This document shows positions 13,635 through 62,104 of a stretch of 64,000 nucleotides of DNA, piece by piece (within the stretch, counting starts at the first letter, position 1; every line of letters starts with the position of its first letter). This stretch comes from Chlorobiota bacterium (GTDB lineage Bacteria > Bacteroidota > Ignavibacteria > OLB7): positions 71,919 to 135,918 of the forward strand of contig JAEUSP010000063.1 of assembly GCA_016788565.1 (NCBI GenBank), read 5' to 3'. The notes below the pieces were generated by a model. That model did no database searches, had not been told where the DNA came from, and was given only the letters and a program-made list of their open reading frames with translations. The position numbers and the translations under genes are program-made.

Positions 13635-15464
13635 ATGAAGCCTTTCTCCATCATGTTCTGGATACTCCTATCCGTTTGCCTGTTTCATCAATCTTCATTT
13701 TCCCAAGAAGCGGATATTGGGCGAAAGGAGGAGCATTTTTTTTATGTTGGGTATAACGGAATGGAGTTTTACTTAACGTCCAGAAGTACGGTTGAGCAGA
13801 CTTATTATTCAAAACGCTCAACCGAGTACAATACCTTCTATATTCACGAGAATTTTTTTGATAGAGTAAAGTCTATCAAGGGAGAATATGATGATGATGA
13901 TATTAATGAACGTTCAATATCAGCGATAAACCCCGAAAATGAAGATGTCTTTCTATCAGATTACCGCATCCATAAAATTTCTTTTCCTGACAAAATTGAG
14001 GTTGGAAAGTCAGGTTTTTATAGATATGAGAGGGAGTATAAGGATATAGCCTACTTCCCAATAATGTTCGTCCCTAACCTGAATAGAGTTGACAGTTACG
14101 CAATCATTGTCGAGCATCCTGATGGCGTTCAAGTAGATTTTGATATTTATTTCACGGCTAAAAACATCCCCTATACTCTAGATACTACTGATCCCGAACG
14201 AACAATTCTGAACTTTAGTGCCATTGAGCGTTTCGATAAGCTGCCCTACTACCCATTCGATGGGTTTCATGCCGCAATTTTTACTTCTGTACGCTATCAA
14301 GGAAATATCAATCCAGTAACTCCTGCGGATTTTTTGCGGTGGTATTCTAATCTTCTTGACTCCTCGATTTATTCGATAAACTACAGCGACCCTGCGCTAC
14401 ATTCTGCGATTACTACTGCGTCCAGCAACCGCGACAAGGTAAAAATGATCTATGATTACGTGCGAAAAAATGTGCGTTACATTGCCGAGGAGCAAAATTT
14501 CAACGCCATTGTCCCTCGCAGCCCAACAACAGTATTTACACGGAAGTATGGCGATTGCAAAGACAAAGCATTCCTAATTTCGGCATTAGCAAAAAAATAT
14601 GGAGTGACAGTGTACCCGGTTCTGGTGTCAACAACCCCCGAACCTCCGTTTCAAGAAACGCATCCAACGCAGTTTAACCATGTGATCTGTTTGTACGAAG
14701 AAGGGAACGAACGAATATATTTTGATCCAACCAGCATGTATTCTGAGTTTGGAGACTTGCCACAAGGTGATATGCAGGCGCAAGGGTTAATTTTAAACAA
14801 GTTAAAGCCTGAACAGGTGATTGTACCACATCAATTTTCCGATCCTACACTTGAGATCAGTATAGAGGGTGACATAGAACAACCAAAGCAAGCAAAAGCA
14901 CGGGTGATTTTGCGAAACGATTACTTATCAACCGCATTGCGGGCTAAAGCTGAACTTACTGGTATTGAATTAGAAAACACGCTATCTAATTTAGTCACGC
15001 ATCATTTTCAAAAAATATCGTTCGATTACTTTACGTTCGAGTCAGAATCAGATAGCCAGATTGTTTTTACTGCCAACGCTGACATGAAAGACTTTATTAT
15101 TGCTTCCACAGAAAAGCGTTATATCCCCCAAATGCCGTTTTCGATGATAGATAACAGCATCTTGAAACGTGAGGCAGATAGCCAAGCAATTTACCTTGAG
15201 GAGGTTACATCGCTAAAACTCGATGTCTCACTTCGTACGCCTGCCTTGAAAATTCAGTCTAAAACGGCAGAGTTTGGCGATCCATCCGTTGCATCCTTTA
15301 AAGGGGAAGCGAGGCAAGGTGATAATGGGAATATCAACCTTTCTTATTCGCTACAGAATGACAGGAAAACACTAACAGGCAATGCACGCGCTGCCTTTGT
15401 TAGCTTTGCCAAAGATTTTCTCAAAAGCAAAAAAAACATGTTCACTATAACCCAAAACCAATAA
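13635..15464 (+). CDS. Secreted DUF3857/transglutaminase-like cysteine-protease-domain protein (low-GC island gene 1)
   Basis: A signal peptide. Transglutaminase-core-like KYGDCKDKAFLISALAKKYGVTVYPVLV (GxCxDxAxLxxALxRxxGIPAR pattern). AT-rich coding sequence. Confidence 0.6.
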   Translation: MKPFSIMFWILLSVCLFHQSSFSQEADIGRKEEHFFYVGYNGMEFYLTSRSTVEQTYYSKRSTEYNTFYIHENFFDRVKSIKGEYDDDDINERSISAINPENEDVFLSDYRIHKISFPDKIEVGKSGFYRYEREYKDIAYFPIMFVPNLNRVDSYAIIVEHPDGVQVDFDIYFTAKNIPYTLDTTDPERTILNFSAIERFDKLPYYPFDGFHAAIFTSVRYQGNINPVTPADFLRWYSNLLDSSIYSINYSDPALHSAITTASSNRDKVKMIYDYVRKNVRYIAEEQNFNAIVPRSPTTVFTRKYGDCKDKAFLISALAKKYGVTVYPVLVSTTPEPPFQETHPTQFNHVICLYEEGNERIYFDPTSMYSEFGDLPQGDMQAQGLILNKLKPEQVIVPHQFSDPTLEISIEGDIEQPKQAKARVILRNDYLSTALRAKAELTGIELENTLSNLVTHHFQKISFDYFTFESESDSQIVFTANADMKDFIIASTEKRYIPQMPFSMIDNSILKREADSQAIYLEEVTSLKLDVSLRTPALKIQSKTAEFGDPSVASFKGEARQGDNGNINLSYSLQNDRKTLTGNARAAFVSFAKDFLKSKKNMFTITQNQ

Positions 15465-17395
15465 TGAAACGAATCTACCTGCTAATCGCTGCTGCCGCAA
15501 TCTGCCTTGCCGGATGCAATATCTCCTATCGAACAATGTACTTTACCGAGTTCAAACCTGAAGATATAAACGTGGATAGCGTAAATATCCAAGAGTATGA
15601 AAAGAAGTATGGTAAGTATGATGGCGTTATCCTTCATAATGATTATTCGCTTGAACAGGCTTCAACGACCTTGCGTTCTTCTTATACACTTGTAAGAATG
15701 CGGTATATGGTTTTAAATCCTAACGCTCAATGGCTTACTACACTTAATCTGAATGTTGGCAGTGGAAGCCTTAATGAGGCATACGTGTACATTATTTATC
15801 CAAATGGTCAAAGAAAGAAGTTCGGGATTGATGATTTTATTTATGAGGTAAATAATGGAAAAGGAGTATATAAATTTGCTTATCCAGAAATAGTGAAGGG
15901 AACAATTATTGAAGAATCTTATGAAATAGAGCGATCTCTTGATTTCGTTATTAATCATAGCGCGGTGCTGCAATTCTCAATTCCTTGCGAATCAAATCAT
16001 TTTCAATGCGGTTCCCACTCACTTTGGGCTGTAAAATTAAAAACTGATAGCACGAAATTACCAGGACTTACTGTTGTAGATGATGAAGACTACAATAAAC
16101 AGATCGTCGAGTATCGTGGAACTAATATCCCTGCATACGTTGATGAACCATATTCCAGCTTGCAGCAAGAAAATATTCGAAAAATTGAATTTATGTACAC
16201 AACCCTAGCAGCAAGAAGGGCATATTGGTCGTCATCTTCTACTTGGGAAGAAATATCAAACAGATATGCTGAATGGGTGGTGCGTGAAGAACCTGACGAG
16301 GATTTAGCTGAAGAAGTTCAGGAAATTATCAAATCTGCTTCTGATGATGAAGCAAAACTACGTTCTATTGCCTCGCATGTTCAGCAGAACTACAAGCTTG
16401 TTAATTGGAGCAACAATGATATTGATGTCGTTTTTGAAAAAAAACGCGGAAGTGATGATGAGCTTTGCGCGCTAACACGGGAAATGCTTCAGGCCGCCAA
16501 CATCCCAGCAGAAATGGTTCATGTGCACTCTGCTTATGATGGCCAATTTGTTGAGTCCTATGTGAACATTTACGAAATCCGTAATCCTGCTGTATTGGTA
16601 ACCATTAAAGGAAATCAGTACATGGTGTTCCCTTATGTTAAAAATTACCCTGTTGATCTTATTCCACAACATCTTCAGGAACAGAAGGCTTTAGTGGTTC
16701 AGGAAGGTGAAAAGGCCAAATTCGTAACCACGCCAGCGGGCAGTATGGCGAACAACACCGTCACCGAACAGTATAAATTGAATATCAATGATGAAGGAGA
16801 AATTGAGGTGCAGGAAGAGAAAACTCTAACTGGGCAGGGCGCGTATCGGATACGTGAAATGCTAACAGAGATGAAAGCCGATGAGATTGATAAAGTTCTA
16901 AAAGAACTGCTAACCTACTCCGAAGGTGATGTCAAGATCGTCTCCCACGAAATAATTAACCAAAGTGATTACACCAAACCCCTAATCATAAAACTGGTGT
17001 ACAACATTGATAACCTTGTGACAGTGACACCAGATGAGGTGATCTTTCAGACAGGAGGGCTGTTCTCGCCATCCTCAAATGTGAAGACGAAGATTGATAC
17101 CGAGGAACGAGTAAACCCAATACGGATTTATTCGGATGAAAAGTATATTAAAAATATCAGCATTGAGTTCCCCAAAAACTGGGCACTGACCTCTACGCTG
17201 AAAAATCTTGAGAAGGAGAATGAGTTCGGTAAAATCAAGGGAGTTTATACTGTAAATCCTGGGAACATTCAAGTTGCGCAGGAGCGATTGCTACTAAAAT
17301 CCCACAAACCGAAGGAAATGATTGATGAGCTTCTGGAAATCACCGGAAGGAAGTCGCAGCTGTATATCCCTACAATGATTTTTAAGATCAATTAG
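15464..17395 (+). CDS. Lipoprotein paralog with a transglutaminase-like domain (low-GC island gene 2)
   Basis: Lipobox LAGCN. GSDDELCALTREMLQAANIPAEMVHV matches the transglutaminase-like core. The start overlaps the stop of the upstream gene (taATGa). Confidence 0.55.
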   Translation: MKRIYLLIAAAAICLAGCNISYRTMYFTEFKPEDINVDSVNIQEYEKKYGKYDGVILHNDYSLEQASTTLRSSYTLVRMRYMVLNPNAQWLTTLNLNVGSGSLNEAYVYIIYPNGQRKKFGIDDFIYEVNNGKGVYKFAYPEIVKGTIIEESYEIERSLDFVINHSAVLQFSIPCESNHFQCGSHSLWAVKLKTDSTKLPGLTVVDDEDYNKQIVEYRGTNIPAYVDEPYSSLQQENIRKIEFMYTTLAARRAYWSSSSTWEEISNRYAEWVVREEPDEDLAEEVQEIIKSASDDEAKLRSIASHVQQNYKLVNWSNNDIDVVFEKKRGSDDELCALTREMLQAANIPAEMVHVHSAYDGQFVESYVNIYEIRNPAVLVTIKGNQYMVFPYVKNYPVDLIPQHLQEQKALVVQEGEKAKFVTTPAGSMANNTVTEQYKLNINDEGEIEVQEEKTLTGQGAYRIREMLTEMKADEIDKVLKELLTYSEGDVKIVSHEIINQSDYTKPLIIKLVYNIDNLVTVTPDEVIFQTGGLFSPSSNVKTKIDTEERVNPIRIYSDEKYIKNISIEFPKNWALTSTLKNLEKENEFGKIKGVYTVNPGNIQVAQERLLLKSHKPKEMIDELLEITGRKSQLYIPTMIFKIN

Positions 17396-42106: not shown

Positions 42107-43591
42107 TTGCAGCCAGACATTGAACAGACCCGGTTGCGGGTATCCAGAGAGACAAACGCCACGAAGAAGGCACAATTCGGCCAATTCCTTACGCCACAAC
42201 GGATTGCGGCTTTTATGGCAAGCCTGTTCCCGCCCGCCGGGGGAATCTGCCGTTTGTTGGATGCGGGGGCTGGCATTGGTTCGCTTTCTGCAGCGTTTCT
42301 GGAGCGGTGGCGTGCTGGCAATTTTCAATTTCAGCGCGTCGAGCTTGACGCATTCGAGGTAGATGATTCCTTGCACGCTGAGTTATCGCGAACATTCTTG
42401 CAGTATCGAAGCGAATCATTCAGCCTGCATCTTCATGGTGATGACTTCATCCACGCCGCAGTGAGCGCGCTTTCCGGCGGACTTTTTTCAAAGGCACTGC
42501 AGGGGTACAGCCACGCCATACTCAATCCGCCGTACAAAAAAATCAATAGCACGTCGGCGCACCGTTTGGTACTGCGTGAGATTGGGATTGAGGCGGTCAA
42601 TCTTTACTCAGCTTTTGTTGCGTTATCGCTGGCACTTGTTATTCCGGGCGGGCATATCGTTGCAATCATTCCACGCAGTTTCTGCAACGGGCCATACTAC
42701 CGTCCATTCCGTGATTCCATTCTTCGCCAATCGGCTATCCGTCACCTCCATTTGTTCAACTCGCGCAGCAAGGCGTTCAAGGATGATGATGTTTTGCAGG
42801 AGAATATCATCATTCTGTTGGAACGTGGTGGCCGCCAGGAATCGGTGACTGTTTCAACTTCGACCGATGATACTTTCGCTGATCTGACCCAGCACAACTA
42901 TCCGTTCAGCCGGATTGTCTCCCCCGATGATTCAGAGCGATTCATTCATGTCCCCACCTCACCTGCACCAACTTCCCTTGAGTTATTGCCGGCGATTCGG
43001 CACACCCTTGCTGATGTTGGCATCAGCGTATCAACCGGGCCCGTGGTTGATTTCCGAGTAAAGGATCACCTGCGCGATATGCCAGGATCAAGCACTGTGC
43101 CGATGCTGTACCCCTGCCACTTCATTGGGCAAAGTATCCGATGGCCGATTGAGGGAATGAAGAAGCCCAACGCAATCGAGCGCAACTCTGCTACTGAAAA
43201 ACTGCTCTATCCAATCGGGTTTTATTGCTTGGTGCGGCGTTTCTCTGCCAAAGAAGAATCACGCCGCATCGTTGCAAGCGTTGTTGAGCCAGCCACGTTT
43301 GGCCAGGCATCCATGCTCGGCTTGGAGAATCACGTGAACGTCTTCCATGAGGATAAACAGGGGTTGCCGGAGCCATTGGCTCGCGGGTTGGCTCTGTTCC
43401 TGAACACAACCGCTGTTGACCAGCAGTTTCGGCAGTTCAATGGCCATACCCAAGTCAATGCCGCCGATCTGAAGTTGATGAAATATCCAAGCCGCAACGC
43501 CCTGATCCAACTTGGCTTGTGGGCAATGCAGCAAAAGGAAGCACCCACGCAAGCCCAGATTGATTCCACGTTAGAAACCCTGGCCGAATGA
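42107..43591 (+). CDS. Gamma-class N6-adenine DNA methyltransferase (Eco57I/M.BsuBI-M.PstI-like) of a type II RM system
   Basis: Motif I LLDAGAGIGSLS and motif IV NPPYKK, in gamma-class order. Length 494 aa is similar to M.BsuBI/M.PstI. A 4-bp ATGA overlap joins it to the downstream endonuclease gene. Confidence 0.75.
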   Translation: MQPDIEQTRLRVSRETNATKKAQFGQFLTPQRIAAFMASLFPPAGGICRLLDAGAGIGSLSAAFLERWRAGNFQFQRVELDAFEVDDSLHAELSRTFLQYRSESFSLHLHGDDFIHAAVSALSGGLFSKALQGYSHAILNPPYKKINSTSAHRLVLREIGIEAVNLYSAFVALSLALVIPGGHIVAIIPRSFCNGPYYRPFRDSILRQSAIRHLHLFNSRSKAFKDDDVLQENIIILLERGGRQESVTVSTSTDDTFADLTQHNYPFSRIVSPDDSERFIHVPTSPAPTSLELLPAIRHTLADVGISVSTGPVVDFRVKDHLRDMPGSSTVPMLYPCHFIGQSIRWPIEGMKKPNAIERNSATEKLLYPIGFYCLVRRFSAKEESRRIVASVVEPATFGQASMLGLENHVNVFHEDKQGLPEPLARGLALFLNTTAVDQQFRQFNGHTQVNAADLKLMKYPSRNALIQLGLWAMQQKEAPTQAQIDSTLETLAE

Positions 43592-44544
43592 GTACCAACA
43601 CAAAGCGCGATCCTCTGAAGGAAGCTGAGCACATCCTTGCTTTGTTAGGGCTGCCTGTGGTGCAGCAGAACGAACGCTCCGCGCTTTGCCTGCTCTCTCT
43701 GTTGGACCTTCGTCCGGGTAAGGCTTGGAACAAGGCAAGGAACCCACTACTGGGGATCACCCCGATGATGGACTGGATGCGCAAGCACTACAACAAGGAT
43801 TACGCGCCAAACACCCGCGAAACAGTGCGTCGCCAGACCATGCACCAGTTTGTGGCTGCTGGGATTGCCCTGTACAATCCCGACAATCCTGACCGTCCGG
43901 TGAACAGCCCAAAAGCTGCTTACCAGATAGAGCCTGCCACACTTGCTTTGCTACGCAGTTTTGGCACCAAGCAATGGCACAGTAATCTGGTAAATTACTT
44001 GGCGATGCGCCAGACGCTGGTTGCCCGTTACGCCAAAGAACGCCAGCAAAGCCGCGTGCCGGTCAAAATTGCACCGGGTAAACAGATTACCCTAAGCCCC
44101 GGTAAACATAGCGAGCTGATTCGGGCAATCATCGAAGACTTCGCCCCACGTTTTGCGCCGGATAGTCTGCTGGTGTATGCCGGTGATACTGGCGACAAAT
44201 GGGGGTACTTCGATGCGGAGCTATTCCAAGAGTTGGGACTTACGGTTGATCCCCACGGCAAAATGCCCGATGTGGTGTTGTATTACGCACACAAAAACTG
44301 GTTGCTACTGGTGGAGTCCGTCACCAGCCACGGGGCAGTTGATGGGAAACGCCATGCAGAGCTTACCAAACTGTTTGCTGGATCACGGGTTGGTTTGGTG
44401 TATGTCACTGCTTTCCCAAACCGAGCTACTCTCAGCCGCTACTTGGGCGAAATTGCATGGGAAACTGAGGTGTGGATTGCTGATGCGCCTTCTCACCTGA
44501 TTCATTTTAATGGATCGCGCTTCTTGGGGCCATATCCTGCATGA
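43588..44544 (+). CDS. Type II restriction endonuclease, BsuBI/PstI family (probable)
   Basis: 318 aa, translationally coupled to the methyltransferase in the same M-then-R order as BsuBI. The family assignment is from overall length and organisation plus remembered similarity, not a search. Confidence 0.55.
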   Translation: MSTNTKRDPLKEAEHILALLGLPVVQQNERSALCLLSLLDLRPGKAWNKARNPLLGITPMMDWMRKHYNKDYAPNTRETVRRQTMHQFVAAGIALYNPDNPDRPVNSPKAAYQIEPATLALLRSFGTKQWHSNLVNYLAMRQTLVARYAKERQQSRVPVKIAPGKQITLSPGKHSELIRAIIEDFAPRFAPDSLLVYAGDTGDKWGYFDAELFQELGLTVDPHGKMPDVVLYYAHKNWLLLVESVTSHGAVDGKRHAELTKLFAGSRVGLVYVTAFPNRATLSRYLGEIAWETEVWIADAPSHLIHFNGSRFLGPYPA

Positions 44545-52400: not shown

Positions 52401-52584
52401 ATGCCGCAGGTGTGTGAGCAGTGAACGCTATAGTTTCTATTTCCTACTTCCTATTTCCTCCCCTCCCCCCACCCGGGATGCAATTTGGAAACCTTCACCC
52501 GTGAAGGATTCGGCAAGTTTGCGGCGGTGTTCGGCAACGGGGTTGCCGCGCCACATCTTCATTCAGGACAATCACAACGCCTTC

Positions 52585-53274
52585 ATGTCCGAGCAAGTTC
52601 GCTTGATGTTCACGGAAATTGCCGAGCGGTACGATGCCGGCAACGACGCGCTCTCCTTTGGCACTCATCGCCTTTGGAAACGCCGATTGATCCGCCGCGC
52701 CGCTGTCCGCCCCGGCGCGCAGGTGCTGGACGTTGCCACCGGAACCGGCGACATCGCGCTCCGGTTTGCCGATGCTGTTGGTCCGCAGGGGAGCGTGGTG
52801 GGGGTTGATTTTTCTGCCAAGATGATCCAGCAAGCCAAGCAACGCCCCAACAACCAAAAGCCCAACCTCAGCTTTGAAGTCGGCGATGCCATGGGCCTCC
52901 GCTTCCCCGATAACAGCTTCGATGCAACCTCCATCTCCTTCGGCATCCGCAACGTTGATGAACCCGTGGTCGCGCTTCGCGAAATGCGCCGCGTTGTGAA
53001 ACCCGGCGGGCGTGTTCTGGTGATGGAGTTCGGCCAGCCGCGTGGATTGTTCGGGGCGTTGTACCGTTTCTACATCAGCAACATCGGTCCGATTATCGGC
53101 GGCATTATCAGCGGCAAACGCTACGCCTACCAGTATCTGGATCGCACCGCGGCTGCGTTCCCCGCCGGCCAAGCGTTTCTGGAGTTGATGAAACAAGCCG
53201 GGTTCCAAAACCCAACAAAAGAAGCGTTGTTCGGGGGGATTGCCTACATCTACATTGGGGTGAAAGAGAATTGA
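52585..53274 (+). CDS. ubiE: Demethylmenaquinone/ubiquinone C-methyltransferase UbiE/MenG
   Basis: MFTEIAERYDAGNDALSFGTHRLWKR ... VLDVATGTGDIA (SAM motif I) ... ending ..GGIAYIYIGVK, typical of UbiE/MenG. Confidence 0.85.
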   Translation: MSEQVRLMFTEIAERYDAGNDALSFGTHRLWKRRLIRRAAVRPGAQVLDVATGTGDIALRFADAVGPQGSVVGVDFSAKMIQQAKQRPNNQKPNLSFEVGDAMGLRFPDNSFDATSISFGIRNVDEPVVALREMRRVVKPGGRVLVMEFGQPRGLFGALYRFYISNIGPIIGGIISGKRYAYQYLDRTAAAFPAGQAFLELMKQAGFQNPTKEALFGGIAYIYIGVKEN

Positions 53275-53290
53275 AAATGGAGAATTGAAA

Positions 53291-53911
53291 ATGGAGACTG
53301 AGTTGATGTTGCGGCATTCCATCACCGTCGGTATTTCTGGCGGAAGCGGCGCGGTGTATGCGGTGCGACTTCTTGAAATACTTCCACGGTACTACCGCCG
53401 TGTGAACATCGTCATGTCGAACGCTGCGCGCCAGGTGCTTGCCCAGGAGGTTGATGTTGTGGCCCCGGCAGCCGGCGCGTGGGGGTTGCCAAACGCCACG
53501 CCGGAAGAAGCCGAACGGGTCCTGATCTGGAACAACCAGAACTACAACGCGCCGTTTGCCAGCGGAAGCAATTGCCCCGACCAGATGGTGATTGTCCCGT
53601 GTTCGATGAGCACCGTTGCAAGCATCGCCCACGGCATTGACCAAAACCTGATGCACCATGCCGCAGCGGTGATGCTGAAGGAGAAAAAACAACTCATTCT
53701 TGTCCCCCGCGAGACTCCGCTGTCGGCCATCCACCTGCGAAATATGCTCACGCTGGCCGAGCTGGGTGTGACGTTGGTTCCGGCAATGCCCGGCTTCTAC
53801 AGCGGCCAATCAACCTTCGATGACCTTATCAACTTCGTCCTGCAGAAAGTGCTGAACCAACTGAACATTGATCTGAAACTTAGCAGGAAATGGGGGGAGG
53901 GAGGGGGGTGA
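53291..53911 (+). CDS. ubiX: UbiX/Pad1-family flavin prenyltransferase (possibly an MqnM-type role in the futalosine pathway)
   Basis: ITVGISGGSGAVYAVRLLE ... LVPRETPLSAIHLRNMLTLAELG is the UbiX signature. The first ATG is at 53291; the ORF track starts at an upstream TTG. Confidence 0.8.
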   Translation: METELMLRHSITVGISGGSGAVYAVRLLEILPRYYRRVNIVMSNAARQVLAQEVDVVAPAAGAWGLPNATPEEAERVLIWNNQNYNAPFASGSNCPDQMVIVPCSMSTVASIAHGIDQNLMHHAAAVMLKEKKQLILVPRETPLSAIHLRNMLTLAELGVTLVPAMPGFYSGQSTFDDLINFVLQKVLNQLNIDLKLSRKWGEGGG

Positions 53912-53924
53912 TGAATGTGGTCAG

Positions 53925-54065
53925 TGGTCAGTGGTCAGTGGTCAGTGGTCAGTGGTCAGTGGTGAGTGGTCAGTGGTGAGTGGTGAGTGGTGAGTGGTGA
54001 GTGGTGAGTGGTGAGTGGTTGGTGTTGGCTCTATCTCACTCTTCCCATCTCACTCTTCACTCTTC
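53925..54065. repeat. Heptamer arrays (gtggtca)x6 and (gtggtga)x7 plus the conserved tail tctcactcttcccatctcactcttcactcttcg, upstream of the MqnC/E-like gene
   Basis: Read directly. Confidence 0.85.
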
Positions 54066-54141: not shown

Positions 54142-55224
54142 ATGTCTTCCAAACTCCTATCCCGCGTTCGCTCCTTGCTTGAACGGCAGGAACGAATCGG
54201 CGTTGATGATTGCCAGGAATTATTCCAGGTGAAGGACCTTGCGGCGATTGCCACGCTTGCCCGCATCCCACGCGAACGCCGCCACGGCCGCAACGCCCAC
54301 TATCGCGCCATTGTCCCGCTAACCGTTGCCACCGTTGATGACCTTGCCCAAGCTGGCGGCCAGTTGGAACCTGAGTCCGGGGCGGTTGGGATTGCGGTTC
54401 GGCCTGATGGCCAGGCTGCCGCCACGCTGGGGGCGTTGATGGAGCTGCAATCCGCCATGCGATTGCTTCCGTTGCCCGCTACTCTCTTCATTTCTGCAGG
54501 AATCATTGCACGCGCTGCCGAAGCCACGGGAAGCTCAATCCCCGAAGCAGTGCAAGCGTTGGCGGGTGGTGGCGGGGTGTTCATCAACGGCGACGAAGCC
54601 GAGCTTTCCGACGCGACGTTCCGCACGGCGCACACCGCCGCTGCAATCCCATTTCCGCAGTGGCTTGCTGTTCACCGCGCCGCCCATGCCGCAGGGCTGA
54701 AAACTGGTGCTTCAATGCTCTACACCGTCCACGATCGCCCAGCGGAATATGCCGCACATCTTCAGGCGATTCGCCAGCTTCAGGATGAAACCAACGGCTT
54801 CGTTCAGTTTGTGCCGATGGGGGTCCAAAACAGGGATGTTGCCGAGTGGTATCTGGTTGCGCCAACCGCAGCGCAATCGCTTCGTGTGGTGGCGGTTGCG
54901 CGGATGTTCTTGGATTCCATCCCCCACATCGCCGTTGCCCCGTCGTTGATTACCAGCGAAGAATCGTTTGTGGCCTTAAGCTACGGAGCCAACATGGTGG
55001 ATTCCACCATCGCCGTTGGCGACGTTTGTTCCGATGAAGGTTTGGGCGTTGCCGCTGCGGAGGGGGCTTCGCTTCCGGTGATTGCCGCATCCACGGCGCG
55101 CCAGCGTGGCGGAATCCTTCCGCGAACTATTCACAGCCGGATTGTTGAATCCCGCCACATCCCGGTTCCGATGGACGCGGCCTTCGGCGAAATTTCATCC
55201 CTGACTATTCTTGCCCAGCAGTAA
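54142..55224 (+). CDS. MqnC/MqnE-family (radical-SAM-fold) paralog that lacks the CxxxCxxC cluster-binding cysteines
   Basis: It aligns along its whole length with the C-terminal half of the next gene (shared GxGAEI..D.VR, WL.VHR, MLY, IRQLQDE motifs). At the cluster-binding site it reads RNAHYRAIVPLTVATVDD where the neighbour has RNINYTNVCNVDCGFCGF. Confidence 0.55.
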   Translation: MSSKLLSRVRSLLERQERIGVDDCQELFQVKDLAAIATLARIPRERRHGRNAHYRAIVPLTVATVDDLAQAGGQLEPESGAVGIAVRPDGQAAATLGALMELQSAMRLLPLPATLFISAGIIARAAEATGSSIPEAVQALAGGGGVFINGDEAELSDATFRTAHTAAAIPFPQWLAVHRAAHAAGLKTGASMLYTVHDRPAEYAAHLQAIRQLQDETNGFVQFVPMGVQNRDVAEWYLVAPTAAQSLRVVAVARMFLDSIPHIAVAPSLITSEESFVALSYGANMVDSTIAVGDVCSDEGLGVAAAEGASLPVIAASTARQRGGILPRTIHSRIVESRHIPVPMDAAFGEISSLTILAQQ

Positions 55225-55247
55225 CAACCCAGAACGGAGAACATTCC

Positions 55248-57245
55248 ATGCCAACACTTGCACCTTCCCGAAAAAAACTGCGCGTGGTCGCGGCGGACTT
55301 CCTGAACTCGCTTCCACTAACCGTGGAAATGGCCGAAGATGAGTTGTTCAATTTCGAATATGTGATCCCCAGCGAAGGGGCGCGCCGAATGATGGAGCAG
55401 GAAGCCGACATCGCTTTGTTGCCGGTGGCGGCCGTGGCCGAGATTGGCGGCTTGGAGGTTGTCCCCGGCCCTTGCATCGGCGCAAACGGAAGGGTGGAGT
55501 CGGTGGTGATTGTCAGCCAGGTTCCGCTGGATAAGGTTCAGCGATTGCTGATTGACAACGCCAGCCGGACCTCGGTGGTGCTGGCAAAAATTTTCATGGA
55601 TTCGGTGGGGAAAGGTGACATCCCATTTATTCGGATGCCGGGCCAAGCGATTCCGGCAAACGTGAAAGGGACTGATGCTGGCCTTCTGATTGCCGACATC
55701 GCTTTCCGCGAATCGAAGCAGTTCAAATATCGCCACGACCTTGCCGATGCGTGGAAACGATTAACTGGCGAACCGTTTGTTTTTGCCGTCTGGGCTGCGC
55801 AGCCCGGGGTGCTTACTCCAGAGTTGGTGGAGCGAATCAACCGCCGGTTTTGGGATGGGATTGCCCGCAAGCATCAGATTATTGAGGAGTGGGCCGCGAA
55901 ACATGGAATGCCAAAAGCTGAGGTGGCCGATTATTTGGATGAGCGCATTCAGTTCAATCTGAACAAATCCGCGTGGTACGGAATGCAGGAATTTTTCCGG
56001 TTGGGAAGCAACATGCGATTGCTTCCCGATGCACGGGTGGAATTTGCCACGCCGCAGGAACCGCAAAACGGCATCAACACCTTCGGCAAATTTGTGCCGG
56101 AGGTTGTCCCCTACAGCCGCAGCTATGGCGTGGATCGAATTTTGGCGCGCGCCGATGCTGGCCGCCGCATCAGCATCCACGATGCCGAACGGCTCTATCT
56201 GGAGGCGGACTTGACCGACATCGGTGAGGTTGCCAACAACATCCGCAATCGGATGAACCCTGGCGGGCGTGTCAGCTACATTATTGCCCGCAACATCAAC
56301 TACACCAACGTCTGCAATGTGGATTGCGGTTTCTGCGGATTCTACCGCAGCGATGACCCCAAGCGCAAAGGCCACAACGAAGGCTACGTCCTGACCCGCC
56401 AGCAGCTCCGCGAAAAAATGGATGAGCTTGCCGACGGCGATGGTGTGCAGGCATTGGTGCAAGGTGGGGTGAACCCAAATTTGCCGCTGGAATACTACAC
56501 CGACTTGCTCCGTTGGATGAAACGTGAGTGGCCGCAAATCCAGCAAAACAGTTTCAGTGCCGACGAGGTTCTGGGGCTGTGTCCGAACACAACTCCGCAA
56601 GAAATTTCCGCCGTGCTGCACGCCTTGCGCGATGCTGGTTTGGACACCTTTGCTGGTGCCGGGGCGGAGATTCTGGTAGATAAAGTTCGCAAGCGGGTAA
56701 GCTACAAGAAGAGCCGCTCGGCGGTGTGGTTAGAGGTGATGCGGCAGGTGGGGATCATGGGGATGAAGGCCTCGGTGACGATGCTGTACGGCATGGGAGA
56801 AACCACCCGTGATAAGTTTGCGCACATGGCAAAAATTCGCCAGTTGCAAGATGAAGTTTCCCCGTTTATGGTGTTTATCACGTGGCCGTACCAGAAAGGC
56901 CCTGAGCAGAAAATTAAATCGTTCGACCAAGCCGGGGCAACGTATTTACGGGTGCAGGGGATTTCGCGAATTTTCTTCGATAATATCCAGCACATCATGT
57001 GCAGTTGGGTGACACAAGGCCCTGACATCGGCCAGACCGCGCTTTATTATGGAGCCGATGATTTTGGGTCGGTGATGTTCGAGGAGAACGTGGTATCGGC
57101 CAGCGGAACCACCTACAAAATGAACGCAAACTCCATGGAGCATTGCATCCGCGAAGCAGGCTTTATTCCATTCCGCCGCAAAGGGGATTTTAGCGAGTGG
57201 GACTTGGTGGAGCATCAGATGCTGCAAAATACTCGCGTACTATGA
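55248..57245 (+). CDS. Fusion of MqnA (chorismate dehydratase, PBP-like fold) with a radical-SAM MqnE/MqnC-type enzyme (futalosine menaquinone pathway)
   Basis: The N-terminal approximately 270 aa are MqnA-like (LRVVAADFLNSLPL..). The C-terminal approximately 380 aa carry NINYTNVCNVDCGFCGF (Cx3Cx2C) and MqnC/E/CofH-like motifs. Which of MqnC or MqnE it is cannot be decided by eye. Confidence 0.65.
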   Translation: MPTLAPSRKKLRVVAADFLNSLPLTVEMAEDELFNFEYVIPSEGARRMMEQEADIALLPVAAVAEIGGLEVVPGPCIGANGRVESVVIVSQVPLDKVQRLLIDNASRTSVVLAKIFMDSVGKGDIPFIRMPGQAIPANVKGTDAGLLIADIAFRESKQFKYRHDLADAWKRLTGEPFVFAVWAAQPGVLTPELVERINRRFWDGIARKHQIIEEWAAKHGMPKAEVADYLDERIQFNLNKSAWYGMQEFFRLGSNMRLLPDARVEFATPQEPQNGINTFGKFVPEVVPYSRSYGVDRILARADAGRRISIHDAERLYLEADLTDIGEVANNIRNRMNPGGRVSYIIARNINYTNVCNVDCGFCGFYRSDDPKRKGHNEGYVLTRQQLREKMDELADGDGVQALVQGGVNPNLPLEYYTDLLRWMKREWPQIQQNSFSADEVLGLCPNTTPQEISAVLHALRDAGLDTFAGAGAEILVDKVRKRVSYKKSRSAVWLEVMRQVGIMGMKASVTMLYGMGETTRDKFAHMAKIRQLQDEVSPFMVFITWPYQKGPEQKIKSFDQAGATYLRVQGISRIFFDNIQHIMCSWVTQGPDIGQTALYYGADDFGSVMFEENVVSASGTTYKMNANSMEHCIREAGFIPFRRKGDFSEWDLVEHQMLQNTRVL

Positions 57246-57377: not shown

Positions 57378-57797
57378 GTGATAAAGCCAGAATATCAGGA
57401 TAGCGAGCTGACAGGCAAAATCATTGGCTGTGCTATGGAGGTTCATAAGTATTTGGGCAATGGTTTTCAGGAGGTGATTTATCAGCGGTCATTAGCTATT
57501 GAAATGCGATTGCAGGGGCTATCTTTTGAGCGAGAGTTTGAAATGCCTTTGTTTTATAAAGGTGAGAGTGTAGGTTCAAGGCGTGTGGATTTTTTTGTGG
57601 AAGGGAAAATAATGGTTGAATTAAAAGCCGTTATCCAGTTAGAAGATGTGCATTTGGCACAAGCCATCAATTATCTGGAGGCATATAAAATGAAAATCGG
57701 ACTTCTCATCAATTTTGGCAATAGAAGTCTGCAATTTAAAAGGGTTATGAAGCCAAGCGGAAAAAGTCAAAGCTCATCAAAAAAACAAACACAATAA
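57378..57797 (+). CDS. GxxExxY-family protein (PD-(D/E)xK-like), in an AT-rich islet
   Basis: GKIIGCAMEVHKYLGNGFQEVIYQRSL contains the GxxExxY motif. 139 aa. GC is markedly lower than the flanks. Confidence 0.75.
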   Translation: MIKPEYQDSELTGKIIGCAMEVHKYLGNGFQEVIYQRSLAIEMRLQGLSFEREFEMPLFYKGESVGSRRVDFFVEGKIMVELKAVIQLEDVHLAQAINYLEAYKMKIGLLINFGNRSLQFKRVMKPSGKSQSSSKKQTQ

Positions 57798-59956: not shown

Positions 59957-62047
59957 TTATCGTTTGCCGCCAAATTTTTTCCCGCCGCCAGGTCGCCCTC
60001 CGCCAAATCCTTTGTTGAAGTCGCGGCGTGGCCGTTCGCCATCGTTGCGGCGGTCGCCAAACGGGCGGCGGTTGTCATCGCGTTTCCCGAAGCTCCGTTC
60101 GCCAAAATCGTGGCGTGGCCGTTCGCTATCGTTGCGGTCGTTGAAGTTGCGGCGTGGCCGTTCGCCATCGTTGCGGTCGTTGAAGTTGCGACGTGGGCGG
60201 TCGCCGTCGTTGCGGTCGTTGAAATCACGGCGTGGTCGGTCGCCAAATGGGCGGCGGTCGTCATCCCGTTTCCCGAAACTCCGTTCGCCGAAATTGCGGC
60301 GTGGCCGTTCGCCATCGTTGCGGTCGTTAAAGTTGCGGCGTGGCCGTTCGCCATCGTTGCGGTCATTGAAATCACGGCGTGGTCGGTCGCCAAATGGGCG
60401 GCGGTCGTCGTCCCGTTTTCCGAAACTCCGTTCGCCGACATTGCGACGTGGCCGGTCGCCATCATTGCGGTCGTTGCGGTCGTTGAAGTTGCGACGTGGC
60501 CGATCTCCATCGTTGCGGTCGTTGAAATCACGGCGTGGTCGGTCGCCAAACGGGCGGCGGTTGTCATCCCGTTTCCCGAAGCTCCGTTCACCGAAATTGC
60601 GGCGTGGGCGTTCGCCGTCGTTGCGGTCGTTGAAGTTGCGGCGTGGGCGGTCGCCGTAGGGCCGACGGTCGTCGTTTCTTGCTTCCGAGCTGCGGCGTGG
60701 GCGGCTTTGGTCTCCACGTTCTTCAAACTTGCGGCGTGGCCGTTCGCCTTCTTGCTCACCTTGCTCCATCTCCGGTTTCCCCCCTTCATCATCGTGCGCC
60801 ACGAACCGCTCGGCACTCCGTTTCCGAATCGGGCGGTTGCCCCCTGTTTCGGCTCCTGCGTCTTCTTCGGCTTCTTCGGCCACACGCTCTTCTCCCCAAA
60901 TTGTTTTGTACGTTGTTGCGGGTTCGGGCCAAGCGGTATCATCATCTTCCTCCATTTCCAACTCCAACTCTTCTTCATCAAGCTCGGAGTGCGGCCCCAG
61001 CACCACAACAAATTCGCCACGGAATTTTTTCTCAACGAACCGCTCGTTCAGCCCTGCAAGGGTGTCGTGCAGCACTGCTTCGTTCGGCATGGTGAGGTTC
61101 ATGGCCAACGCGGCGGGGCGCAGTGGCATGGCATCGGCAAGGATGGAGAGAAGGGAGCGAAGGCGGTAGGGAGTTTCCAGGATGACCACCGTGCGGGTGC
61201 GGAGGCGCAGTGCTCGTGCGGCAAGTTCCCGTTCGCCAATTTTGCGGGGAAGGAACCCAACCATATCGAATTCATCAATCCCAAAACCGCTGACCATCAG
61301 GGCTGTGGTGATGGAGCTTACGCCCGGGATGACCGTTGGCCGCAACTTGAGTTCGCGCAGTTTCTGGACTAACGTTGCGCCTGGATCCGCCACCAGCGGC
61401 AATCCGGCATCGCTGATAACGGCAACGGTTTTTCCGGCGTTCAGCAGTGCGATCACTTCTTCGGTGGCTTCTTCCTCGTTGTGTTCGTTCATCTCCATCA
61501 GCTTTGCGCTGATGTTGTGAGTTCGCATGATTCGCGCACCAACTTTTGCTTCCTCGCAAACCACAACATCGGCGTTGGCAAGGGTGCGGATTGCCCGCAG
61601 CGTGATGTCGCCATCGTTGCCGATGGGGACCCCAACAAAAAAGATATTCCCGGAGCGTTTGATCCGTACTGCTTCGGTTTCTTCTTCCGTCTCTTCCTCG
61701 CTTGTGGCCTCATCTTCGTTCGGCTGGTCAATCTCCGCAGCATCTGCCAAGCTGGCTTCGGTCTGTTCGGCCTCTTCTTCCTTCGGCTCATCCCGCTCGT
61801 CAGCGTCCGCCATGCTAATTTCTTCCAAGCTGCGTTCGGTCTGCTCGGCTTGTTCTTCCATTGCGGGTTCCTCGGTTCCGGCGTTGCCGGTGGGTGTGTC
61901 GCTCGTTTCTGGGATGAAGGTTGCGTCCTCTATCTGCAGAGGTTGTTGCACCGGCTGTTCGCTTGGTATCGTGGTCTCTTCCGCGTTATCTGGTTGGTTG
62001 GTCATGGATTGCGTTGATGAAAAAAAATCTGAGTCACTCTCGTGCAC
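59957..62047 (-). CDS. rsmI: 16S rRNA 2'-O-methyltransferase RsmI core, with an acidic N-terminal extension and a roughly 330-aa C-terminal Arg/Asp-rich tandem-repeat tail
   Basis: Core: IFFVGVPIGNDGDITLRAIRTLANADVVVCEE ... AGLPLVADPG ... ETPYRL (tetrapyrrole-methylase fold, RsmI). Tail: about 10 copies of the RPRRNFNDRNDGE(R) / FGERSFGKRDDNRRPFGD units. The start is uncertain: the listed start is GTG inside a 14-nt tandem array. Confidence 0.65.
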   Translation of the reverse strand: MHESDSDFFSSTQSMTNQPDNAEETTIPSEQPVQQPLQIEDATFIPETSDTPTGNAGTEEPAMEEQAEQTERSLEEISMADADERDEPKEEEAEQTEASLADAAEIDQPNEDEATSEEETEEETEAVRIKRSGNIFFVGVPIGNDGDITLRAIRTLANADVVVCEEAKVGARIMRTHNISAKLMEMNEHNEEEATEEVIALLNAGKTVAVISDAGLPLVADPGATLVQKLRELKLRPTVIPGVSSITTALMVSGFGIDEFDMVGFLPRKIGERELAARALRLRTRTVVILETPYRLRSLLSILADAMPLRPAALAMNLTMPNEAVLHDTLAGLNERFVEKKFRGEFVVVLGPHSELDEEELELEMEEDDDTAWPEPATTYKTIWGEERVAEEAEEDAGAETGGNRPIRKRSAERFVAHDDEGGKPEMEQGEQEGERPRRKFEERGDQSRPRRSSEARNDDRRPYGDRPRRNFNDRNDGERPRRNFGERSFGKRDDNRRPFGDRPRRDFNDRNDGDRPRRNFNDRNDRNDGDRPRRNVGERSFGKRDDDRRPFGDRPRRDFNDRNDGERPRRNFNDRNDGERPRRNFGERSFGKRDDDRRPFGDRPRRDFNDRNDGDRPRRNFNDRNDGERPRRNFNDRNDSERPRHDFGERSFGKRDDNRRPFGDRRNDGERPRRDFNKGFGGGRPGGGKKFGGKR
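59975..60700. repeat. In-frame DNA tandem repeats (about 105-bp super-unit made of about 30-bp sub-units) encoding the RD-rich tail
   Basis: Repeated ..cgttgcggtcgttgaagttgcggcgtggccgttcgccatcgttgcggtcg.. blocks are visible across 60000-60660. Confidence 0.8.
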
Positions 62048-62104
62048 TCACTCTCGTGCACTCACTCTCGTGCACTCACTCTCGTGCACCCACTCTCTCA
62101 CTCG
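62035..62104. repeat. 14-nt tandem repeat (cactctcgtgcact x4-5) at the 5' end of the rsmI-like gene
   Basis: Read directly. Confidence 0.85.

Follow-up and report, generated by a model that had tools for sequence, protein, structure and literature searches.

In the futalosine route to menaquinone, MqnA and the radical S-adenosylmethionine (radical-SAM) enzyme MqnC catalyze steps 1 and 4, and UbiX supplies the cofactor used by MqnL/UbiD in the late menaquinone steps. The nearest sister family of MqnE/MqnC is CofH, which is one of the two radical-SAM subunits of the FO synthase CofG/CofH. In trypanosomatids, the "prozymes" of S-adenosylmethionine decarboxylase (AdoMetDC) and deoxyhypusine synthase are dead paralogs that act as partners of active enzymes. 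Here we describe a menaquinone/futalosine gene cluster found in a stretch of 64,000 nucleotides (64 kb) of contig JAEUSP010000063.1 from a Chlorobiota bacterium (uncultured, of the Kapaibacteria type), referred to as the window, in which a gene coding for a cysteine-less relative of MqnE lies next to a gene coding for a fusion of MqnA and MqnC.

An mqnEAC operon was noted by Ravcheev and Thiele (PMC4746308). The window shows the same E-A-C order as these operons and as natural MqnE-MqnA-MqnC fusion proteins, but in this case the E component is a separate polypeptide that is predicted to be catalytically dead. A literature search found no description of a cysteine-less relative of MqnE or MqnC and nothing pertinent on radical-SAM pseudoenzymes. 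The same search yielded no discussion of MqnA-MqnC fusions and nothing pertinent on Kapabacteria and futalosine or on an MqnE structure at the level of residues.

Results

Loss of the radical-SAM site

The gene located upstream of the fusion has 361 codons including the stop codon and codes for a protein of 360 amino acids. A longer, GTG-started open reading frame (ORF) beginning at position 54001 was discarded because the N-termini of the orthologs give no support to it. A previous examination of this DNA, made from its letters only (the sequence-only reading), had described the product as a 361-amino-acid, full-length paralog of the radical-SAM half of the fusion; the length needs correction by one residue, while a full-length homolog on the radical-SAM fold is what was found. 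The protein matched no Pfam family at E ≤ 0.01, Radical_SAM (PF04055) included, and its matches to the MqnE, MqnC and CofH models were confined to residues ~117–308. It scored 119.1 bits with the MqnE model (residues 129–299; cut-off 434.55) and 108 bits with the MqnC model. The strings RNAHYRAIVPLTVATVDD and IRQLQDE are both present.

The CX3CX2C motif is absent from the 360-amino-acid protein, as had been noticed before, and from every ortholog. The loop that formerly carried it has been replaced in all of them and is ~15 residues shorter than the canonical one, and several members of the cysteine-less family hold no cysteine whatever. The rest of the site has also been degraded. The GGE-type SAM motif after β2 is replaced by AVRP/AVRC, and only "AE" is left of the GGGAE-type ribose/methionine motif in the core group of the family; a divergent subgroup has lost even this residual GxxAE motif, and in the short forms it lies within the deletion. 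A sequencing error or a frameshift was rejected as the cause, since an identical protein (P0001) exists in an independent ENA assembly and the orthologs, which come from at least 14 independent assemblies, all lack the motif. The 360-amino-acid protein is thus predicted to be unable to act as a canonical radical-SAM enzyme, and it is very unlikely that it catalyzes the addition of the 5′-deoxyadenosyl radical to 3-enolpyruvylbenzoate.

The fold has apparently been retained. AlphaFold2 produced a complete (β/α) barrel with a predicted local distance difference test score (pLDDT) of 86 and a predicted template modeling score (pTM) of 0.87. The best Foldseek match of this model was MqnE (6XIG/6XI9, E = 3e-22, template modeling [TM] score 0.77), followed by HydG, HydE, PylB, BioB and ThiH. 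The barrel is thus predicted to remain, but the GGE-type and GGGAE-type motifs, whose persistence had been in question, do not persist intact.

Descent from MqnE

Hidden Markov models (HMMs) of MqnE and MqnC were built from sequences gathered in this analysis, and the controls behaved as expected. All members of the cysteine-less family (37/37) scored higher with the MqnE HMM than with the MqnC HMM, the difference being 22–69 bits. A profile comparison with hhalign aligned residues 13–350 of the 360-amino-acid protein to canonical MqnE from Polyangiaceae with a probability of 99.95%. MqnE (TIGR03700; 6XI9/6XIG from Pedobacter heparinus) was the closest family by HMM, by profile-profile comparison and by fold. 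The two proteins have in common the N-terminal helices and the C-terminal motifs LQDETGGF, LDNxxHI and FGAD/YGAD, and their genes have the same position relative to mqnA and mqnC, the cysteine-less gene occupying the mqnE slot of the mqnE-A-C order. Unlike MqnE, the 360-amino-acid protein has no CX3CX2C loop and no Radical_SAM Pfam match, its SAM site is degraded, its family changes at a much higher rate, and its relatives can do without the central part of the barrel. The comparisons indicate that the cysteine-less protein derives from MqnE. The sequence-only reading, which had called it an MqnC/MqnE paralog, had the family right and left room for a more precise assignment; the possibility that the HMMs would place the protein in an unrelated family did not materialize. 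Its statement that the protein aligns throughout to the radical-SAM half of the fusion is valid at the level of profiles and folds (the hhalign span and the TM score given above) but not for plain BLASTP, which aligned 127 residues at 31% identity.

Distribution and selection

In addition to the identical protein in the ENA assembly, orthologs were found in twenty further clusters at 40–76% identity. A profile search run exhaustively over 1.84 billion representatives recovered ~27 cysteine-less representatives of 232–382 amino acids when clustered at 50% identity. In the GTDB data, with one genome per species, the gene was present in 11 loci, all from Kapaibacteria-type metagenome-assembled genomes (MAGs). 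The gene was found directly upstream of the MqnA-MqnC gene and on the same strand in 14 of the 14 loci that carry it, and the distance between both genes went from an overlap of 17 nucleotides to a gap of ~230 nucleotides. This arrangement holds for the 11 GTDB loci and for L001–L003 and L015, and UbiE and UbiX usually come before the pair. A shorter, 246-amino-acid form is located upstream of a 74%-identical fusion in locus L021, and no such gene precedes the fusion in the related lineages represented by L019 and L020. Annotations of the orthologs differ: they are "aminodeoxyfutalosine synthase" in JGI and "hypothetical protein" elsewhere.

The ratio of nonsynonymous to synonymous substitution rates (dN/dS), determined for 10 genome pairs, was 0.04–0.26 for the cysteine-less gene, 0.01–0.09 for the fusion, and 0.06–0.20 for UbiE and UbiX. 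The values for the cysteine-less gene indicate purifying selection with no pseudogene-like relaxation, although the protein evolves ~4 times faster than the fusion. Constraint was strongest in the helices of the N-terminus and in the last third of the protein. The dN/dS was ~0.1 at residues 1–55 and 201–295, 0.2–0.43 at residues 56–150, which correspond to the former cluster/SAM half, and up to ~1 in the linker at residues 296–325. Natural deletion variants agree with this regional pattern. The 246-amino-acid form (L021/P0172) is a family member by hhalign (99.9%) and lacks residues ~60–190; P0159 (232 amino acids), also a clear family member, has the same deletion pattern, and the protein from L013 has a partial deletion. 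Despite the deletion, a fold is still predicted for the 246-amino-acid form (pLDDT 82, pTM 0.82), and its best match is MqnE.

Loss of catalytic or cofactor residues combined with purifying selection is one of the marks of a pseudoenzyme, and the 360-amino-acid protein shows both. We consider it almost certain that this protein descends from MqnE, is maintained by selection and has no radical-SAM capacity. The options left by the sequence-only reading, a pseudoenzyme or scaffold on one side and a different chemistry on the other, were the appropriate ones, and the orthologs under purifying selection on which they depended do exist.

The MqnA-MqnC fusion

The 665-amino-acid fusion (55248–57245, plus strand) includes three Pfam domains, VitK2_biosynth (residues 12–253), Radical_SAM (350–528, 66.7 bits) and CofH_C (540–654), and its CX3CX2C motif is intact as CNVDCGFC, in agreement with what had been read from the sequence. 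The suggestion that it could be an MqnA-MqnE fusion joining consecutive steps was not sustained. The radical-SAM half scored 387.8 bits with the NCBIfam model for MqnC (TIGR03699) vs. 265.3 bits with that for MqnE (TIGR03700); MqnC is therefore the best family by ~120 bits, yet the score is below the curated cut-off of 428.1. With the HMMs built in this analysis the scores were 611 for MqnC and 297 for MqnE, and the orthologous Polyangiaceae fusion clears the NCBI MqnC cut-off (457.5 > 428.1). An MqnE function for this half was rejected on the basis of these three comparisons, and because the half is of the MqnC type the fusion spans non-consecutive steps of the pathway.

The N-terminal half matched PF02621 with 134.7 bits (cut-off 26). 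All the solved relatives found are MqnA proteins (2NXO, 7AHR, 6O9A and 2I6E), SCO4506 (2NXO/7AHR) having an E-value of 2e-19, and the alignment shows conservation of the FLN and SRTS motifs. At E ≤ 1 there was no match to a structure of MqnD, and an MqnD identity was discarded. A homology search with the fusion returned 846 proteins at E ≤ 1e-10, many of them annotated as "cyclic dehypoxanthinyl futalosine synthase". The same three-domain architecture was found in all but two of the best 120 of these 846 homologs; the exceptions, P0076 and P0077, are short and probably partial. Among the matches listed, the closest (92–94% identity) belong to "Chlorobi bacterium" MAGs (CHB2, OLB7 and a 4.35-Mb contig), and others are named "Candidatus Kapaibacterium/Kapabacteria", a genus that NCBI places in Bacteroidota. 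Across Kapaibacteria-type genomes the fusion is ~80% identical. It is an ordinary member of a widespread and already known class.

Two further observations concern the fusion. The copy in the window ends in ...MLQNTRVL (57222–57245), eight residues short of the conserved tail of the orthologs, ...(V/I)(I/V)AEL(T/E)PGMI. The L020 contig, with a guanine-plus-cytosine (GC) content of 26%, codes for a fusion with 73% protein identity to that of the window (~55% GC), which is exceptional conservation of a protein for two sequences so different in base composition.

Comparison operons, mini proteins and natural fusions

In Polyangiaceae-type operons the order is UbiD-UbiE-UbiX-(182–205-amino-acid protein)-MqnE-MqnA/MqnC-amidohydrolase-UbiA. 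The stand-alone radical-SAM protein directly upstream of the fusion scores 480 bits, above the MqnE cut-off, and the best match of the amidohydrolase is the aminofutalosine deaminase family (137 bits vs. a cut-off of 320). The conserved mini proteins of 182–205 amino acids, found between ubiX and canonical mqnE in Myxococcota-type loci (L016:8260–8853, L017:8239–8856 and L022:8308–8856), are cysteine-less and consist of the N-terminal helix and the C-terminal part of MqnE; they score 38 bits with TIGR03700 and their match to CofH_C is below threshold (24 bits vs. a cut-off of 27). In this lack of cysteines and in their descent from MqnE they resemble the 360-amino-acid protein, and also in the position of their genes, which immediately precede the gene for MqnE or MqnA-MqnC within the operon. 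Unlike the cluster in the window, they coexist with an intact MqnE in the same operon. A profile of the mini proteins matched canonical MqnE with a probability of 97% vs. 48% for the Kapaibacteria-type family, and the single pairwise link to the latter came from the 246-amino-acid form. Membership in the clade of the window protein was rejected since the mini proteins are closer to canonical MqnE, and they are probably of independent origin.

MqnE is also found joined to the other enzymes. P0078 is a single polypeptide of 1052 amino acids with MqnE, MqnA and MqnC in that order. P0151 and P0153 are MqnE-MqnC polypeptides, fusions of this type having 733–752 amino acids, and P0205 (906 amino acids) consists of MqnE and MqnA plus a CofH_C remnant. 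In many proteins of 705–740 amino acids, an N-terminal MqnE is followed by a C-terminal half of ~370 amino acids without an assigned identity. Other fusions include components without the cluster motif: a short cysteine-less MqnE-like module is joined to an intact canonical MqnC in P0170 (L024), an intact MqnE is joined to an MqnC-like domain lacking CX3CX2C in P0158, and P0268 and P0289 have two tandem cysteine-less MqnE/MqnC-like domains with CofH_C as the sole Pfam match. The genomic contexts of these last four proteins were uninformative.

Gene layout and other features of the window

The cluster comprises four co-directional genes (Table 1). Its designation as a menaquinone/futalosine cluster is justified by the presence of UbiE/MenG and UbiX upstream of the pair; UbiE precedes the pair in most of the related loci, and UbiX is syntenic in related loci. 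Pfam annotation of ~36 further genes in the window identified no other mqn gene, and genes for MqnB, MqnD or a deaminase were not found within the 64 kb. Rfam and promoter/terminator scans yielded nothing useful.

Table 1. Genes and domains of the menaquinone/futalosine cluster (positions are those of the window).
Feature	Position	Strand	Evidence
UbiE/MenG-family demethylmenaquinone methyltransferase	52582–53274	+	Cluster gene 1; PF01209, 211 bits; TIGR01934, 239.7 bits (cut-off 158)
UbiX-family flavin prenyltransferase	53285–53911	+	PF02441, 142 bits; TIGR00421, 172 bits (cut-off 108.9)
Cysteine-less, MqnE-derived protein, 360 amino acids	54142–55224	+	No Pfam match; TIGR03700, 119 bits (cut-off 434)
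MqnA (chorismate dehydratase) domain of the 665-amino-acid fusion	55248–56120	+	PF02621, 134.7 bits; solved relatives all MqnA
MqnC-type radical-SAM domain of the fusion	56121–57245	+	TIGR03699, 387.8 bits; PF04055, PF19288; CNVDCGFC

In the related menaquinone operon of L021, a 336-amino-acid ORF without Pfam match (L021:6926–7936) is inserted between ubiD and ubiE; it is unrelated to the cysteine-less family (hhalign probability < 1%) and was discarded as another paralog. A gene coding for a 139-amino-acid protein of the PD-(D/E)XK_3 nuclease family (57378–57797, plus strand; PF13366, 135 bits) is located in a lower-GC stretch with the fusion on one side and tatD on the other. It resembles a local insertion, since tblastn identified no counterpart in any related locus. 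The TP_methylase (RsmI-like) gene at 59957–62047 (minus strand) codes for a protein with a long, repetitive, Arg/Asp-rich C-terminal tail (RPRRNFNDRNDGE...) that is encoded by tandem repeats of 147–186 nucleotides (~3.4 copies, 60051–60655), and its ortholog in L015 is ~100 amino acids shorter. A 14-nucleotide tandem repeat, TCACTCTCGTGCAC, with 4.6 copies and 98% matches (62034–62097), is located at the start of this gene or immediately before it. The window also contains a restriction-modification pair (42107–44544, plus strand) composed of a protein with an Eco57I-type methylase domain followed by a BsuBI/PstI-type restriction endonuclease, and two adjoining transglutaminase-core proteins of ~610–640 amino acids (13635–17395, plus strand). 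The GC content of the latter region, 0.40–0.45 compared to ~0.56 for the window, makes a horizontally acquired island possible.

Discussion

The reading that we favor, held with as much doubt as confidence, is that the cysteine-less descendant of MqnE works with MqnA-MqnC as a non-catalytic partner and that the catalytic MqnE is encoded elsewhere. The cluster would be a degenerate form of the known mqnE-mqnA-mqnC arrangement. The mqnA and mqnC genes are fused, and their product would be one active bifunctional protein, chorismate dehydratase plus cyclic dehypoxanthinyl futalosine (DHFL) synthase. The gene in the mqnE slot codes for an MqnE descendant that is kept by selection although its cluster/SAM site, including the CX3CX2C loop, has been lost, a loss that would leave it unable to generate the 5′-deoxyadenosyl radical. 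The parts that matter would be the N-terminal helical segment (LARIPRERRxGR) and the C-terminal third (HLxAIRxLQD ... PTAAQ(S/T)LR ... ARIFLDNIxHI ... LSYGAD ... EARW), since both survive in relatives that lack the middle of the barrel. We propose that the protein binds MqnA-MqnC as a non-catalytic subunit, adaptor or stabilizer, possibly together with a true MqnE; the gene for the active aminofutalosine synthase would then lie at a different locus. A second locus is expected because the MqnA product has, to our knowledge, no known fate without MqnE, and because lineages that have only the 246-amino-acid form (L021) or no such gene (L019 and L020) conserve MqnA-MqnC strongly. Such a protein would resemble the prozymes in that a paralog without catalytic residues is kept as the partner of an active enzyme, a likeness of concept only, proposed here from sequence. 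The CofG/CofH pair is different in that both of its subunits are active.

Several points weigh against this reading. A canonical MqnE was not found in the 64-kb window or within ±10 kb of the 14 related loci, where tblastn detected only the paralog and the fusion; the second canonical radical-SAM Mqn gene that the sequence-only reading had proposed to look for was thus not located in these regions. Two other searches were uninformative with respect to an MqnE of this lineage: a homology search with P0166, a Planctomycetota-type protein that was the canonical one scoring best against the cysteine-less profile, gave no Kapaibacteria-type match among the 120 listed, and a profile of the divergent subgroup recovered from metagenomes only canonical MqnE/MqnC proteins at 22–37% identity, none from the lineage. 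The evidence for the partner role is indirect and consists of the strict adjacency and of the fusion proteins of other organisms. The coexistence of a mini protein with a true MqnE is a parallel rather than direct evidence, since the mini proteins are closer to canonical MqnE. The cysteine-less protein is ~45% identical where the fusion is ~80% identical, a speed that also fits a slowly decaying relic. Finally, the polar residues E154, R161, H178, H182, H206, R211, D258 and H262 are common to the 360-amino-acid form and the active enzymes and, together with the full barrel of the model, may leave room for residual ligand binding or a new activity.

This last possibility leads to the alternatives in which the old pocket still has a use. 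A new, non-radical chemistry on the old fold, such as a futalosine/aminofutalosine hydrolase, a deaminase or an MqnD substitute, would provide a step that is not encoded nearby. The location of the gene in an operon beside mqn genes, the confidently predicted complete barrel, the invariance of the polar residues among the core 20 sequences, and the lack of MqnB, MqnD and deaminase genes in the window, when the myxobacterial operon has a deaminase, are all consistent with it. However, the invariant residues are those already conserved in active MqnE/MqnC, so that no new active site or family-specific catalytic constellation is apparent; the half of the barrel that includes E154, R161, H178 and H182 is deleted in the members of 232–246 amino acids, the divergent subgroup no longer has the AE motif, and among the folded regions constraint is weakest in what used to be the active-site half. 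We consider a new chemistry unlikely, but give it more weight than the other alternatives. Next comes, also as an unlikely one, a ligand carrier or sensor, a specific sub-case of a non-catalytic role in which the remnant pocket would bind 3-enolpyruvylbenzoate, aminofutalosine or DHFL and pass intermediates between MqnA, MqnE and MqnC. Conservation is found in the C-terminal half of the barrel and in the CofH_C-like region, the gene lies between the late-step genes and MqnA-MqnC, and the Arg-rich N-terminal ARIPRERRxGR, which is more conserved than in the active enzymes, could bind carboxylates; the short forms, in which a closed pocket is impossible, argue against it.

If the in-operon mqnE had become redundant through another copy, the ORF could be a decaying relic kept by operon spacing, translational coupling or the short time elapsed. 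Its evolution at ~4 times the rate of its neighbors, the repeated internal deletions, its absence from L019 and L020, and the relaxed linker would all be expected. Nevertheless, the frame is intact in at least 14 genomes and ~27 clusters at 50% identity, with divergence down to ~30% identity, the overall dN/dS is 0.04–0.26 with ~0.1 in two modules, the deletions are in frame and always spare those same two modules, and the short form is predicted to fold well. A relic thus ranks behind the ligand carrier and is rather unlikely. Far less credible is that the protein is still an aminofutalosine synthase, with non-canonical ligands holding its cluster or with the MqnC domain providing one in trans. 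In favor of it, no second MqnE turned up in the window or the related flanks examined, JGI annotates the orthologs as aminodeoxyfutalosine synthase, and the Kapaibacteria-type MqnC domain, being below the NCBI cut-off, is somewhat atypical. On the other hand, the cluster loop has been deleted rather than substituted, cysteine is wholly absent from several members, the GGE-type and GGGAE motifs have decayed, the 232–246-amino-acid members lack one half of the barrel, and the score is 119 bits against a cut-off of 434, which make this explanation extremely doubtful. Hardly less doubtful is a split enzyme, in a lineage without any other MqnE, where the site of the MqnC domain would make the radical and the cysteine-less protein would supply the substrate-binding half, one cluster thus serving two reactions. 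In a milder version, the N- and C-terminal modules of MqnE may be a general, repeatedly re-evolved and obligatory partner of MqnC.

The new element in this cluster is the pseudoenzyme derivative of MqnE, while the fusion by itself was already known. Radical-SAM enzymes seldom figure in discussions of where pseudoenzymes come from. The label "aminodeoxyfutalosine synthase" given to the orthologs is probably wrong, and because annotation pipelines disagree between this name and "hypothetical protein", pathway reconstructions for this uncultured group can wrongly count the cysteine-less protein as MqnE or miss the gene. Cysteine-less MqnE-like modules apparently arose independently in myxobacterial operons and fused to MqnC. 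These recurrent modules, the presence of a seemingly dead MqnE beside MqnA-MqnC and the natural MqnE-MqnA-MqnC fusions suggest a complex of the early futalosine enzymes, with a structural part played by an MqnE-shaped subunit, an idea that is relevant because the futalosine pathway is an antibiotic target.

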